Shown: positions 15,798-59,880, counted from the stretch's first letter. The stretch is DNA of 64,000 nucleotides from Candidatus Oxydemutatoraceae bacterium (GCA_965226235.1 OZ245335.1:1580427-1644426), one strand, 5' to 3'. Numbers and translations: made by a program. Notes: generated by a model from the sequence alone, not told the origin.

Positions 15798-15995
15798 ATG
15801 TGGGTGAGTAAGGATTTTGTTTTTATCCATGTGCCCAAAACCGGCGGCAATTTTGTTCGCGCCGTTCTGTCAGAAAAAAGCCTGCATTTGCCCCGTATCC
15901 GCCCCTCGCGTCCTGTTTCTGGCAAGTGGCGTGTTTCTCTGCACAGGTCGTTGGCAAAAAGCCTGTACCGGAGAAAAGGCAAAGCGAGCCTGATA
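15798..15995 (+). pseudogene. sulfotransferase paralog 4, 5' remnant (~65 codons), truncated at the wrbA-block breakpoint
   Basis: MWVSKDFVFIHVPKTGGNFVRAVLSEKSLHLPRIRP…SLAKSLYRRKGKASL then unrelated sequence. Lacks a 23-codon stretch present in paralog 3. Confidence 0.6.
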
Positions 15996-16858
15996 CTGAT
16001 CCCGTGTTGCGCGGGTGTGCCAGAACCTGGAGGAGGTGCGCGCGCGAGCCTGCGCTACCGCGATCACGCGCCCGAGGGATGTTCGGCATGGCTGCCGGTG
16101 TGCACCGCCAGTCGGGCGCAGGTTTCTTCCCCGCGCCAGGGGGCTCCCTTAGTCCGCTGCGAGTCGGTGGGCGACTTCAGCGACGCGGCGCCCCAGCGCA
16201 CGGCACAACGCTGTTTCGTCCTGGGTAAGCGGCAGTGTACTGTCCTTGCCTGCGACGTGGCTCGCGCCGTAAGGCGTGCCGCCGCTGCGCGTGGTGATGA
16301 GTTGTGACTCGCTGAAGGGAATGCCGCAGATCAGCATGCCGTGGTGCAGCAGAGGCATCATCATCGTGATCAAGGTGGTTTCCTGTCCGCCGTGTGCGCT
16401 GGCCGAGGAAGTGAAGACACCGGCCGGCTTGCCGACGAGCGTACCGCTCATCCATTGCCCGCCGGTTTGGTCCAGGAAATGCTTGAGTGGAGCGGCCATG
16501 TTGCCGAAACGGGTGGGGCTGCCGAGCAGCAACCCAGCGCACCGATCGAGATCGTCGAGCGTCGCTTCGGGCGCGGTATCGGCGGACACGGCGCTATCCG
16601 TGCCCGGCGTGGTGATCGCTGGCGTGACGCGCAACCTGGCCTCGGTATCGGCAACGCTTTCGACGCCCCGTGCAACCGCGCGCGCCATTTGCCCGACTGC
16701 GCCATAACGCGTGTAATACAGGATCAGTATCGGTAGCGGAGACATCGCAGGTGGTACCAGGCAGGTTCTGGGGCATCTCCCTGAATAATACATCCACACG
16801 CGCTCGCGACAAGCCCCTGGTTGAGAAAGGCTCCATCTTCTCTTGACGCCTACCCGGT
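15991..16858. other. 868-bp wrbA-containing segment present in inverted orientation relative to its second copy at 58294-59164
   Basis: Reverse complement of 15991-16858 aligns with 58294-59164. Flanks differ on one side (sulfotransferase remnant vs IS481 end) and converge on the other (…cctac(ac)ccggt|tgcattgcactatgac). Confidence 0.75.
16149..16745 (-). CDS. wrbA: NAD(P)H:quinone oxidoreductase, flavodoxin-like (WrbA family); intact copy
   Basis: 198 aa: [30 protein letters not shown]… flavodoxin-like fold with …[26 protein letters not shown]…. The ORF tool's 389-aa version is an upstream read-through. Confidence 0.75.
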
Positions 16859-16946
16859 TGCATTGCACTATGACAGCAACAATAATCCGCAGGGGAATGG
16901 TTCCTTGCGGGACGGTTTTCTGCACGTGACAGGAGGAATCTGAAAC

Positions 16947-17219
16947 ATGGAACTGACAGTCCAGCAATTTGAACAGTTTGACAACCGCCTTGAGCAATTT
17001 GACAATCGCCTGCAGGCTGTTGAACAAGGGCAACGAGACCTCGAGCAAGGGCAACGAGACCTTGAGCGCGAGGTCGCTGGCGTCAAGCAGGATCTCTCGC
17101 GTGAGATCGTTGCTTCCCAGGCCCGGATCATCCAGTGGGTGGTCGTTCTGTTCCTGGGCTCGACGGTGGTCGTCGCGACGCTCTCCGGCGTCTATATCTC
17201 GGTGCTGCTCGCGCGATAA
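16947..17219 (+). CDS. small coiled-coil protein with C-terminal TM anchor (DUF1640/CCDC90-like architecture); 2 x EQFDNRL + 2 x EQGQRDL heptads
   Basis: [43 protein letters not shown]…[38 protein letters not shown]. Paralog at 59346 with different repeat number. Confidence 0.55.
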
Positions 17220-17258
17220 CACTTGCGGCCGGAGGCCGCGCCTATTAGTTGACATGAC

Positions 17259-17290
17259 GCCCCGCATCCGCGGGACGTTGTTTATTTGGT
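17259..17290 (+). terminator. possible intrinsic terminator after the coiled-coil gene (GC hairpin + T-rich tail); identical sequence after the B copy (59692-59731)
   Basis: gccccgcatccgcgggac followed by gttgtttattt. Confidence 0.35.
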
Positions 17291-17356
17291 CCAAGACGGA
17301 TCCGACCAACGGCACCAAAATTCGGATAAGCGGTCGGAACCTGGACTTTCAGCCTG

Positions 17357-17531
17357 GCCACGTGGGCGTGGATCAAGGTTTGTCCGTTGATAGCCATGCC
17401 GCCGCGGCTACAAGCCTTGGTGTCGCTCGGCTACAAGGCTGCCGATGCGCGCAGGGTGATCCGGCAGGCGGCAAAATCGGATGACTCGGTGGAAGACATG
17501 ATCAAAGCCGCGCTGAAAGACAGTCTGTAAC
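17357..17531 (+). pseudogene. ruvA: ruvA 3' remnant (C-terminal domain III only)
   Basis: …RLQALVSLGYKAADARRVIRQAAKSDDSVEDMIKAALKDSL* resembles the RuvA C-terminal domain. No upstream part; a full ruvA starts at 63782. Confidence 0.55.
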
Positions 17532-17573
17532 ATCCGATATGGCCACAAGCGATGGATTTTGACGAGCCAGGCA

Positions 17574-57562: not shown

Positions 57563-57606
57563 CCGGACCCGCCGCCGCTATTGCTTCGTGATCTCGGAGT
57601 TTCGCC

Positions 57607-58089
57607 ATGCCCGACGGTGCTTCGGTCCATGCCTCAGCTTGCCAGTCGGTGAATTCGCGGTTCGACGAGCACCGTCTAGTACAGCCTTACGCTACACCCC
57701 GACTAAGTAACTCTCCTCTGGAGGCCGAAGAGGTGCTGGGGCATTACCGGGGCCTGTGGCAGGTGGAGGAGGCATTCCGGGTCAGCAAGCACGACCTTCG
57801 GGTGCGACCGATCTTTCACTGGACACCCGCGCGCATCCAGGCGCATCTGGCGATCACGTTCATGGCCCTGCTGTGCGTGCGGCATCTGGCCTACCGTGTC
57901 GAGCTTCAGTCTCGCCGCCTTTCCCCGGAAGCTATCCGCACGGCTCTGCTCCATGTCCAGTCCAGCGTGCTGGAGCATCTGGGCACAGGACGGCGCTATG
58001 TCATTCCTTCCTCGGTGAGCCGGGAGGCGGAGAAGATCTACCAGGTGATGGGTTTGAAGCATTCCCGGGTTCCGTTCGAACTCGTCTGA
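57607..58089 (+). pseudogene. IS4-superfamily (IS1634/IS4-like) transposase C-terminal fragment
   Basis: …YRGLWQVEEAFRVSKHDLRVRPIFHWTPARIQAHLAITFMALL… conserved C-terminal block of IS4-type DDE transposases. No N-terminal part. Confidence 0.55.
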
Positions 58090-58186
58090 TAGTTCTACAG
58101 GGCTCAAGCCCTGCATTGTAGTGCCTTGCTGGAAATTAAACTCCAATGAAATCAATCATTTGACTCATTCAACCGTCGAAGTCAGG

Positions 58187-58293
58187 AGGCGATTTCATAG
58201 AAACCTCGCACGCGGAAGCCGATGTGTTGCATCAACATGTCGGCTTCCTTTTTACATCAGACCATCTGTCCCATTTGTTTCTGAACTCATACA
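58187..58293 (-). mobile_element. IS481 left-end fragment (extended-variant left end with hairpin), abutting the B-copy wrbA segment
   Basis: Reverse complement TGTATGAGTTCAGAAACAAATGGGACAGATGGTCTGATGTAAAAAGGAAGCCGACATGTTGATGCAACACATCGGCTTCC… collinear with 27868-27990. Confidence 0.65.
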
Positions 58294-58406
58294 CCGGGTA
58301 GGCGTCAAGAGAAGATGGAGCCTTTCTCAACCGGGGGCTGGTCGCGAGCGCGTGTGGATGTATTATTCAGGGAGATGCCCCAGAACCTGCCTGGTACCAC
58401 CTGCAA

Positions 58407-59004
58407 TATCTCCGCTACCGATACTGATCCTGTATTACACGCGTTATGGCGCAGTCGGGCAAATGGCGCGCGCGGTTGCACGGGGCGTCGAAAGCGTTGC
58501 CGATACCGAGGCCAGGTTGCGCGTCGCGCCAGCGATCACCACGCCGGGCACGGATAGCGCCGTGTCCGCCGATACCGCGCCCGAAGCGACGCTCGACGAT
58601 CTCGATCGGTGCGCTGGGTTGCTGCTCGGCAGCCCCCCACCCGTTTCGGCAACATGGCCGCTCCACTCAAGCATTTCCTGGACCAAACCGGCGGGCAATG
58701 GATGAGCGGTACGTTCGTCGGCAAGCCGGCCGGTGTCTTCACTTCCTCGGCCAGCGCACACGGCGGACAGGAAACCACCTTGATCACGATGATGATGCCT
58801 CTGCTGCACCACGGCATGCTGATCTACGGCATTCCCTTCAGCGAGTCACAACTCATCACCACGCGCAGCGGCGGCACGCCTTACGGCGCGAGCCACGTCG
58901 CAGGCAAGGACAGTACACTGCCGCTTACCCAGGACGAAACAGCGTTGTGCCGTGCGCTGGGGCGCCGCTACGCTGAAGTCGCCCACCGACGCGCAGCGGA
59001 CTAA
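58407..59004 (+). pseudogene. wrbA: wrbA second copy, inactivated (ATG->ATA start loss and +2 frameshift in a poly-C tract)
   Basis: Corresponding codons read …PPAISPLPIL… versus …[10 protein letters not shown]… in copy A. GCAGCCCCCCACCCG (6 C) versus GCAGCCCCACCCG (4 C) shifts the frame after LLLGSP. Confidence 0.65.
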
Positions 59005-59345
59005 GGGAGCCCCCTGGCGCGGGGAAGAAACCTGCGCCCGGCTGGCGGTGCACACCGGCAGCCATGCCGAACATCCCTCGGGCGCGTGATCGCGGTAGCG
59101 CAGGCTCGCGCGCACACCTCCTCCAGGTTCTGGCACACCCGCGCAACACGGGATCAGTATCAGGCGAGCGTGGGGCGGCTTTGCAACAACGCTCGGCGGA
59201 CACCCTCACCAACAAAATCCCGGGTTGTCCCATAGGTGGTAAACTCCTACACCCGGTTGCATTGCACTATGACGGCAACAATAATCCGCAGGGGAATGGT
59301 TCCTTGCGGGACGGTTTTCTGCACGTGACAGGAGGAATCTGAAAC

Positions 59346-59660
59346 ATGGAACTGACAGTCCAGCAATTTGAACAGTTTGACAACCGCCTTGGGCAATTTG
59401 ACAATCGCCTTGAGCAATTTGACAATCGCCTTGAGCAATTTGACAACCGCCTTGAGCAATTTGACAATCGCCTGCAGGCTGTTGAACAAGGGCAACGAGA
59501 CCTTGAGCGCGAGGTCGTTGGCGTCAAGCAGGATCTCTCGCGTGAGATCGTTGCTTCCCAGGCCCGGATCATCCAGTGGGTGGTCGGTCTGTTCCTGGGC
59601 TCGACGGTGGTCGTCGCGACGCTCTCCGGCGTCTATATCTCGGTGCTGCTCGCGCGATAA
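59346..59660 (+). CDS. small coiled-coil/C-terminal-TM protein, paralog B (5 x (E/G)QFDNRL heptads, 1 x EQGQRDL)
   Basis: [57 protein letters not shown]… Otherwise >95% identical to 16947-17219. Confidence 0.55.
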   Translation: MELTVQQFEQFDNRLGQFDNRLEQFDNRLEQFDNRLEQFDNRLQAVEQGQRDLEREVVGVKQDLSREIVASQARIIQWVVGLFLGSTVVVATLSGVYISVLLAR

Positions 59661-59880
59661 CACTTGCGGCCGGAGGCCGCGCCTATTAGTTGACATGACG
59701 CCCCGCATCCGCGGGACGTTGTTTATTTGGTTCAAGACGGATCCGACCAACGGCACCAAAATTCGGATAAGCGGTCGGAACCTGGACTTTCAGCCTGGCG
59801 GCGCCTTGCTCTATGTGGTGGCGCAGTACAAAGGTGTGTCAACCCAATCCAAAGGTGTTCCTGCTTTCCATGCGCGTCGG

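Follow-up and report, generated by a model that had tools for sequence, protein, structure and literature searches.

Duplications that flank DNA integrated by homologous recombination belong to textbook knowledge, the classical form being the Campbell-type single-crossover integration of circular DNA, as in Hfr and F-prime formation, in cointegrates mediated by insertion sequences (ISs) and in integrative suicide plasmids. Integrase islands carry attL and attR direct repeats and often lie at tRNA genes, while DNA switches such as fimS, Hin/Gin and the shufflons are invertible. In the field of methylamine catabolism, the mau methylamine dehydrogenase cluster of Methylobacterium extorquens AM1 is a 10-kb region placed between two copies of ISMex15 (PMC5023228). 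The present analysis concerns a stretch of 64,000 nucleotides (nt) from Candidatus Oxydemutatoraceae bacterium (GCA_965226235.1 OZ245335.1:1580427-1644426), called the window throughout and numbered from its first letter, in which two blocks, A and B, each made of wrbA and a gene for a small coiled-coil protein (cc), bracket a mosaic of methylated-amine catabolism genes of about 40-43 kb. The blocks are the decayed remains of a segmental duplication of one locus, and the island that they enclose is bounded by IS481-family ends; the probable route to this state is an IS481-associated duplicative integration followed by trimming. The decayed duplication and its position around the island are read directly from alignments, and the route of formation is reconstructed from what was left behind. 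Taken as a whole, the structure is a well-resolved case of ordinary IS-driven genome plasticity and involves no new element or mechanism.

Two decayed copies of a single locus

Self-comparison of the window reveals two sub-segments in each block. For wrbA, the reverse complement of 58293-59165 corresponds to 15988-16858 over 873 aligned columns, with 12 mismatches and one 2-nt gap (98.4% identity). For cc, 16852-17358 in A and 59251-59799 in B form a direct repeat that is about 99% identical (five substitutions in about 440 nt) when an array of 21-nt units is excluded. This array counts 2+2 units in A and 5+1 in B, which accounts for the lengths of the two cc proteins, 90 and 104 amino acids (aa), respectively. 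A spacer of 85 nt (59166-59250) separates the two sub-segments in B only, and a stretch of 10-11 nt, CCTAC(A)CCCGGT (16849-16858 in A), is common to the inverted and the direct homology. Overall, the copies diverge by 1.1-2.5%. The initial annotation had recognized the two near-identical blocks, the common orientation of the 0.5-kb cc segment and the inversion of wrbA between copies. Its block limits were real but needed correction (B ends at 59799 and not at 59812, and A at 17358), the spacer and the 10-11-nt stretch had escaped it, and it had described the inversion from the side of A, whereas the derived orientation is that of B, with A keeping the ancestral one (see below).

The ancestral state can be approached through two metagenome contigs, L089 and L090, which were reached through WrbA homologs and from which synteny was taken; among 185,579 species-representative genomes, the closest AspS is only 66% identical, and none of the distant relatives reached through AspS carries wrbA-cc beside fmdB. 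L089, with 82-87% nucleotide identity to the window in shared genes (87% for the cox operon), carries nudix, aspS and fmdB on the same strand, with a single divergent wrbA separated from them by an intergenic region of 184 nt that contains neither cc nor the island. Its cox operon lies 5.8 kb beyond wrbA, and the sequence that is extra in the window extends from about 16830 to 59860. The more distant L090 presents the order ruvB, ruvA, ruvC, yebC, nudix, aspS, fmdB, again with a single divergent wrbA and without cc or island. Since wrbA is single and divergent from fmdB in both relatives, the ancestral locus was single, with wrbA pointing away from fmdB, and from this synteny its order reads cox ... 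<-wrbA | (cc) fmdB aspS nudix yebC ruvC ruvA ruvB. The left half of this locus is found at A (cox synteny and intact divergent wrbA) and the right half at B (intact fmdB-ruvB). In other words, both copies sit at the ancestral locus, which answers a question raised by the initial annotation, and the one wrbA present in each relative speaks against two independent ancestral loci.

The original duplication was larger than the blocks. Directly 3′ of copy A lie three pieces of ruv genes, namely 17350-17726, which matches the 3′ end of ruvA and the 5′ end of ruvB (L001:6677-7052), and 17715-17816, which matches L001:7842-7944, with 97% identity. L001 is a contig of another assembly, and its intact ruvAB genes lie 5-7 kb downstream of a B-type block. 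Given this identity to intact ruvAB, A is a second copy of wrbA-cc-fmdB-aspS-nudix-yebC-ruvC-ruvA-ruvB, and the duplication originally extended from wrbA to ruvB over about 7.2-7.4 kb. Copy A has lost about 4.4 kb (from the 3′ flank of cc into ruvA) and 790 nt inside ruvB, with the microhomologies CAG(C/T)CTGGC and GCGCGCGGGCGC at the two deletion junctions. A third junction, between copy A and the truncated last member of an array of four paralogs, carries CCTG.TACTGAT, which is also present in the 3′ flank of wrbA. All three deletion junctions, together with the inversion breakpoints, lie within microhomologies of 4-12 nt. The decay has been reciprocal: wrbA is intact only in A, and the essential set fmdB, aspS, nudix, yebC and ruvCAB is intact only on the B side; cc, intact in both copies, is the exception. 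In light of the ruv fragments, the blocks are the remains of a larger duplication of one locus, and hence a product of the arrangement and a possible substrate of later excision or inversion, rather than the capturing repeats for which they had been taken. Polarization of the differences in the ruv fragments with L090 was uninformative, since this contig is too divergent.

The product of wrbA_A scores above the equivalog cutoffs of NF002999 (NAD(P)H:quinone oxidoreductase; 188.2 bits, cutoff 141) and TIGR01755 (167.6 bits, cutoff 132.5). The start codon of wrbA_B is changed from ATG to ATA (about 58409-58411), and an additional CC shifts the frame at about 58626. Both lesions are found in L001 as well, and wrbA_A is intact in the window and in L088, a further contig of the same other assembly. 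When the A/B differences are polarized with L089, B has nine derived substitutions and the derived indel, A has one derived substitution, and two are ambiguous; by our own codon reading, the coding changes in wrbA_B are mostly non-synonymous. These changes read as the decay of an initially near-identical copy, and the inverted copy B is the derived and dead one.

The sequence upstream of cc points in the same direction. The hexamer TTGAC(G/A), with CACTAT 17 nt downstream, is kept in front of cc_A, and a −35-like hexamer (TTGAC or TTGAT) aligns with it in four cc paralogs of other genomes; its absence from B argues that the A configuration is the original one for the cc cassette also. The inversion breakpoint beside cc falls directly after TTGAC(G/A), that is, between the promoter-like −35 and −10 elements. 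The inversion is bounded by an imperfect pair of 10-11 nt, ACCGGGTAGG at 58293-58302 and its inverted partner CCTACACCCGGT at the end of the spacer, the microhomology being CCTAC(A)CCCGGT / ACCGGGTAGG. As 47 pairs of inverted repeats of at least 9 nt occur in this GC-rich kilobase, such repeats are common by chance, and the pair is read as microhomology and not as a recombinase site. Its interpretation as a target-site duplication was likewise rejected, the geometry being unlike that of a replicative inversion and such repeats being common by chance.

These features nevertheless bring to mind fimS, Hin/Gin and the shufflons, with which the locus shares opposite orientations, short inverted repeats and a breakpoint inside a promoter-like element. 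A programmed switch would imply that a wrbA segment of about 0.96 kb flips between the short inverted repeats and toggles the expression of cc and/or wrbA, in line with the imperfect 10-11-nt repeats at both ends of the B segment and with a breakpoint within the spacer of the conserved TTGAC-N17-CACTAT element. Such a switch is very improbable: unlike in the known systems, the two orientations belong to two separate loci, each fixed in two strains, the inverted copy is dead (with its lost start codon, frameshift and mostly non-synonymous changes), and the inverted repeats are of chance length, as the 47 pairs illustrate. In addition, A has lost the left inverted repeat as well as the 85-nt spacer, and no integrase, tyrosine recombinase or serine recombinase was found among the window open reading frames (ORFs) scanned, in which the recombination-type proteins are DDE transposases only. 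At the junction between the inversion and the direct repeat, a difference of 2 nt separates L001 (about 1725-1735, CCTACACCTACGG) from the window (59246-59258, CCTACACCCGG); it corresponds either to a real slip in the CCTAC motif or to a long-read error.

Since the region is rich in IS copies and remnants, which are classic places of misassembly, an assembly artifact has to be considered, in which a repeat was collapsed or made chimeric or IS copies were wrongly joined. It can be given almost no credence, because the fixed A/B substitutions, the indel, the spacer and the repeat numbers are all reproduced in L088 (for A) and L001 (for B). L001 is 99.7% identical to 57522-64000 and reproduces the succession IS remnant-B-fmdB...ruvB, and L088 reproduces cox-IS-paralogs-A-ruv fragments-IS481 with 99.2-99.8% identity. 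Logan contigs built from short reads begin at 59770, 30 nt short of the repeat end at 59799, which fits a branch of the assembly graph at this end if k is about 31 (a value assumed here), and mgsC, a gene of the island, was found without any sequence difference in a short-read contig and in another contig of >1 Mb. All but one of the A/B differences are common to both strains, so that the duplication is older than their 0.2-0.3% divergence. Exact-sequence look-ups with wrbA_A and cc_A returned no match, probably owing to a 388-aa ORF called over the stretch in the second assembly.

Probable route of formation and predicted rearrangements

At both inner borders of the island (17853 and 58293), left ends of the IS481 family face outward, and the same IS is therefore present at both ends of the cargo, as IS481 copy 1 and as an inverted left-end remnant. 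No target-site duplication was found around the outer IS481 ends, whose flanks, ...GGCACGGGA (ending in CACGGGA) and CCGGGTAGG..., have only CGGG in common, and none was found at the two ends of copy 1 itself. The earlier view that the island is not a simple IS insertion holds, given the lack of a target duplication and the kilobase-scale host repeats, but with IS481 left ends at both inner borders the ISs did play a part.

Comparison with the described systems is informative in this respect. Plain transposition leaves a short target duplication, which is missing here, and does not leave kilobase-scale duplicated host sequence outside the IS copies, which is what the blocks represent. With the mau region of AM1, the island shares a methylamine module lying between copies of one IS family, a composition that departs from the backbone and its absence from the corresponding site of a relative; unlike this region and composite transposons, it is a multi-module mosaic of about 40 kb with further IS remnants. 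As in integrase islands, direct repeats originating from the target locus bracket the island and the site is empty in a relative, but the repeats measure 0.5-1.4 kb (originally about 7 kb) and comprise whole genes instead of tens of bases, no integrase was found, and the window contains no tRNA or tmRNA gene according to ARAGORN and no Rfam match. The structure thus falls outside three classes, namely the integrase/att islands, the plain composite transposons (for want of a target duplication) and the programmed invertible switches.

The most economical version of a duplicative integration associated with IS481 supposes a circular intermediate with the island and a copy of the locus, which entered the chromosome through one homologous crossover of the Campbell type; such an event automatically places direct repeats of the homology on both sides. 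Whether before or after this integration, illegitimate deletions and one small inversion would have led to a reciprocal decay of the redundant duplicated genes and thereby have trimmed the direct homology, about 7 kb at first, to about 0.5 kb. Loss of most of the direct homology should have stabilized the island. The resemblance to Campbell-type integration thus lies in the direct repeats flanking the island, in the single crossover that would restore the locus and in the need for only one copy per gene, the other decaying. The differences are that no circular form, replicon, transfer genes or integrase is seen here, that the homology is down to 0.5 kb in direct orientation with a part inverted, and that formation is reconstructed. 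The proposal of the initial annotation that the island was captured or rearranged by recombination between the blocks survives in part: the interior is indeed distinct and IS-rich, but nothing shows that recombination between the blocks was the cause.

Part of the same evidence is compatible with a tandem duplication of wrbA-ruvB in situ, for example by unequal exchange between IS481 copies, followed by insertion of an IS481-bounded composite transposon at the joint and decay of the redundant genes. All pieces stand in direct order (A, ruvA′, ruvB′, ... B, fmdB ... ruvB), the IS481 left ends point outward, as they would at the two extremities of a composite transposon, and the B-specific changes resemble decay from an initially identical copy. 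This sequence of events is unlikely, however, as it needs at least two independent events at the same point; moreover, no target duplication flanks the IS481-bounded unit, and the single IS, in one orientation, that a simple unequal IS-IS exchange should leave at the joint is not seen.

Duplicative integration of a mostly foreign island remains the preferred account, against which several points have to be set. Its formation step is unobserved, and tandem duplication or other IS481 routes would lead to an identical arrangement. One diagnostic junction is gone, the paralog array having replaced the left end of the first copy. Neither a circular or excised form nor an island-free variant of the strain was found, and a scan of JGI metagenomes with the 3′ flank of cc gave 0 matches. 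The copy divergence of 1.1-2.5% denotes an event that is old in comparison with the strain divergence of 0.2-0.3%, yet does not distinguish decay in situ from import from a close strain. Finally, the GC content of the island is heterogeneous, with one interior segment (mtn, 0.593) resembling the backbone, and it is composition and the empty site, instead of a phylogeny, that speak for a foreign origin.

Two rearrangements of the present structure can be predicted. RecA-dependent recombination between the two cc cassettes (0.5 kb) would excise the island together with the ruv fragments and restore <-wrbA | cc fmdB, which, apart from cc, is the gene order of the relatives. Recombination between wrbA and the inverted pseudo-wrbA (0.87 kb) would flip the 41.4-kb interior. 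This predicted instability bears on the calling of methylamine and trimethylamine catabolism as present or absent among metagenome strains. Beyond this, the locus shows how a catabolic island becomes fixed in the small (~2-Mb) genome of an uncultured and apparently methylotrophic lineage, and it illustrates the successive steps of target-duplicating integration, reciprocal loss of copies and removal of direct homology by microhomology deletions and inversion.

Gene content and composition of the island

The features of the window are listed in Table 1. Matches to Pfam, NCBIfam and PDB confirm the gene content noticed earlier between the copies, that is, IS481, putative genes of the N-methylglutamate (NMG) pathway, the genes for trimethylamine dehydrogenase (TMADH) and ETF, and a Liv transporter.

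Table 1. Coordinates of the two blocks, of the island and of the flanking features in the window (CDS, coding sequence)
Feature	Position	Strand	Remarks
cox operon (coxB, coxA, cox11, coxC, SURF1, cox15)	255..6980	-	Pfam; left-flank backbone
IS5/IS481/IS1634 zone	about 7100-12435		Pfam/NCBIfam
Four tandem ~1-kb paralogs	12436..16000	+	fourth truncated at copy A junction
Copy A, wrbA sub-segment	15988..16858	-	self-comparison repeat; orientation as in L089 and L090
Intact wrbA_A CDS	16149-16745	-	198 aa; divergent from cc/fmdB side
Copy A, cc cassette	16852..17358	+	promoter-like TTGACG-N17-CACTAT, leader hairpin, cc_A, terminator-like hairpins
cc_A CDS	16947-17219	+	90 aa
ruv fragments 3′ of copy A	17350..17816	+	three pieces, two microhomology deletion junctions
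ruvA 3′ end	17357-17530	+	Pfam RuvA_C
ruvB 5′ fragment	17574-17726	+	Pfam RuvB_N
ruvB 3′ end	17715-17816	+	match to L001:7842-7944
IS481-family copy 1	17853..18851	+	transposase ORF 17852-18865; Pfam rve/rve_3/HTH_32; left end on the side of copy A
NMG-type genes and amt	19129-27225		Pfam domains
Degenerate IS481 copy 2	27869-~28930		repeat comparison
gcvT-like, HAD and sox-like four-subunit dehydrogenase genes	29035-37035		Pfam
IS481 and IS3 remnants	37028-39437		Pfam, repeats
LuxR-type response regulator and histidine kinase	39485-41328		Pfam; GC 0.43
etfAB, LRV protein, Fe-S/CCG oxidoreductase, TMADH	41658-49325		Pfam, NCBIfam, PDB
TMADH	47133-49325		PDB 1DJN
liv-type ABC transporter	50488-56047		IS481 remnant inside
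mtn-like (MTA/SAH) nucleosidase	56447-57562		Pfam
IS1634 remnant	57607-58187		Pfam/repeats
IS481-family left-end remnant	58188..58293	-	106 nt; abuts copy B; 90% complementary to 27867-27972, the left end of copy 2
Copy B, wrbA sub-segment	58293..59165	+	inverted relative to the ancestral state; pseudogene
B-only spacer	59166..59250	+	85 nt; last motif CCTACACCCGGT
Copy B, cc cassette	59251..59799	+	cc_B CDS 59346-59660, 104 aa; conserved −35 element lost
Right flank: fmdB-type zinc ribbon, aspS (60343-62082), nudix, yebC, ruvC start	59895..64000	+	Pfam

The domain set of the NMG pathway is found in the expected order (GS-like; GATase-II + GXGXG + GltS-FMN; sox-like four subunits). In the comparison of these genes with NCBIfam, no equivalog reached its cutoff, and gene function is predicted only. 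The names gmaS, mgsABC and mgdABCD are applied here to these putative genes after PMC5023228 and general usage. The assignment of TMADH is firmer, as it aligns over its full length with trimethylamine dehydrogenase of known structure (PDB 1DJN; 1268 bits, residues 2-729 on 1-728). By eye, it is about 74% similar to the enzyme of Methylophilus; this value was weighed as a pointer to the donor and set aside, since members of the family from many proteobacterial groups are 74-84% identical.

The GC content of the interior (17853-58292) is 0.527, against 0.579 on the cox side, 0.613 in the right backbone, 0.620 in block A and 0.612 in block B, and between 18 and 56 kb the tetranucleotide distance from the backbone increases. 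On this compositional ground, the cargo appears to be mostly foreign. The lower GC reported by the initial annotation is hence real, but it is not uniform: the interior varies from 0.43 to 0.55, its mtn segment (56447-58187) reaches 0.593, and the paralog array, which lies beyond the bracket, is low as well (12436-15987; 0.513).

As to the ISs themselves, the best NCBIfam match of copy 1 is the IS481 family, with 182 bits where the cutoff is 224. A full IS481 left end includes a segment of about 115 nt with a hairpin of 16-bp stem (58214-58248 in the remnant that abuts copy B; compare 27869-27995). The left end of copy 1 (17853-17880) is without this segment, the loss of which is apparently a deletion between two ACA(A/T)ATGGGA repeats. 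Another IS481 remnant (51875-52592), 65-76% identical to copy 1, interrupts the liv-type transporter, between the gene for the substrate-binding protein (50488-51762) and those for the permeases, and may uncouple the former from the latter.

The cc family and the flanking regions

The cc protein is a small coiled-coil protein with a C-terminal membrane anchor, for which PHROGs and Pfam returned only weak coiled-coil matches. Its 16 homologs, all from ENA metagenome assemblies, occur in unrelated contexts without wrbA. The family is characterized by an N-terminus that is invariant (MELTVEQFEQFD.RL), a membrane helix conserved at the C-terminus and a variable count of heptad units (LEQFDNR / EQGQRNL), and PF07798 (DUF1640) is recognized in two members. 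Several copies may occur per genome, with three on a contig of 2.43 Mb and a tandem pair in contig L084, in which an IS481 fragment lies 27 nt upstream of a cc cassette, although the contig is unrelated. In two other contigs, L082 and L083, cc adjoins giant genes of 16,143 and 9,933 codons, respectively. A hairpin with an 11-bp stem and a T-rich run is found in the 5′ leader of both local genes (16886-16911 and 59285-59310), 5′ of the ribosome-binding site; it is kept with some base changes in the paralogs of L084, has no Rfam match and could be an attenuator or another leader element.

The multiplicity of cc in related genomes, the IS481 fragment near cc in L084 and the intactness of both local cc genes hint at a more active role of the cassette, as a portable homology or landing pad at which IS481-bounded circles would integrate and excise by RecA-dependent recombination. 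This is a rather improbable scenario. If it were true, the methylamine island of ~42 kb would be a reversibly integrated module and not a fixed insertion, and the inverted pair formed by wrbA and pseudo-wrbA would add a second rearrangement, of the flip type.

To the left of copy A, the four tandem paralogs share 65-74% protein identity and a conserved N-terminal FIHVPKTGG. They belong to no Pfam or NCBIfam family, and no homolog was found in L089 or L090; their only match is a weak one to a PHROG with a galactose-3-O-sulfotransferase motif (E = 7e-4), from which they are putatively sulfotransferase-like. Further left, an ORF of 449 aa without family match (7760-9109) is located between inverted repeats of 472 nt (7270-7741 and 9167-9638) that are 97% complementary, the right arm overlapping an IS5-family transposase gene; the whole segment 7270-9638 looks like cargo between two inverted partial IS5 copies. 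The neighboring IS1634-family element (10356-12435; 2.08 kb) encodes a transposase of 614 aa (NCBIfam 270 bits, cutoff 100) and is precisely absent from the otherwise 99.8%-identical L088, which reveals an insertion polymorphism at the strain level. On the right side, L001 continues the flank of the window into intact ruvC, ruvA and ruvB. Downstream of ruvB (8036-12141), it carries genes for N6/N4 DNA methyltransferases and one for a ResIII helicase, at a position occupied in L090 by tol-type genes (MotA/ExbB, ExbD and TolB), and a restriction-modification insertion beside ruvB is likely in L001.

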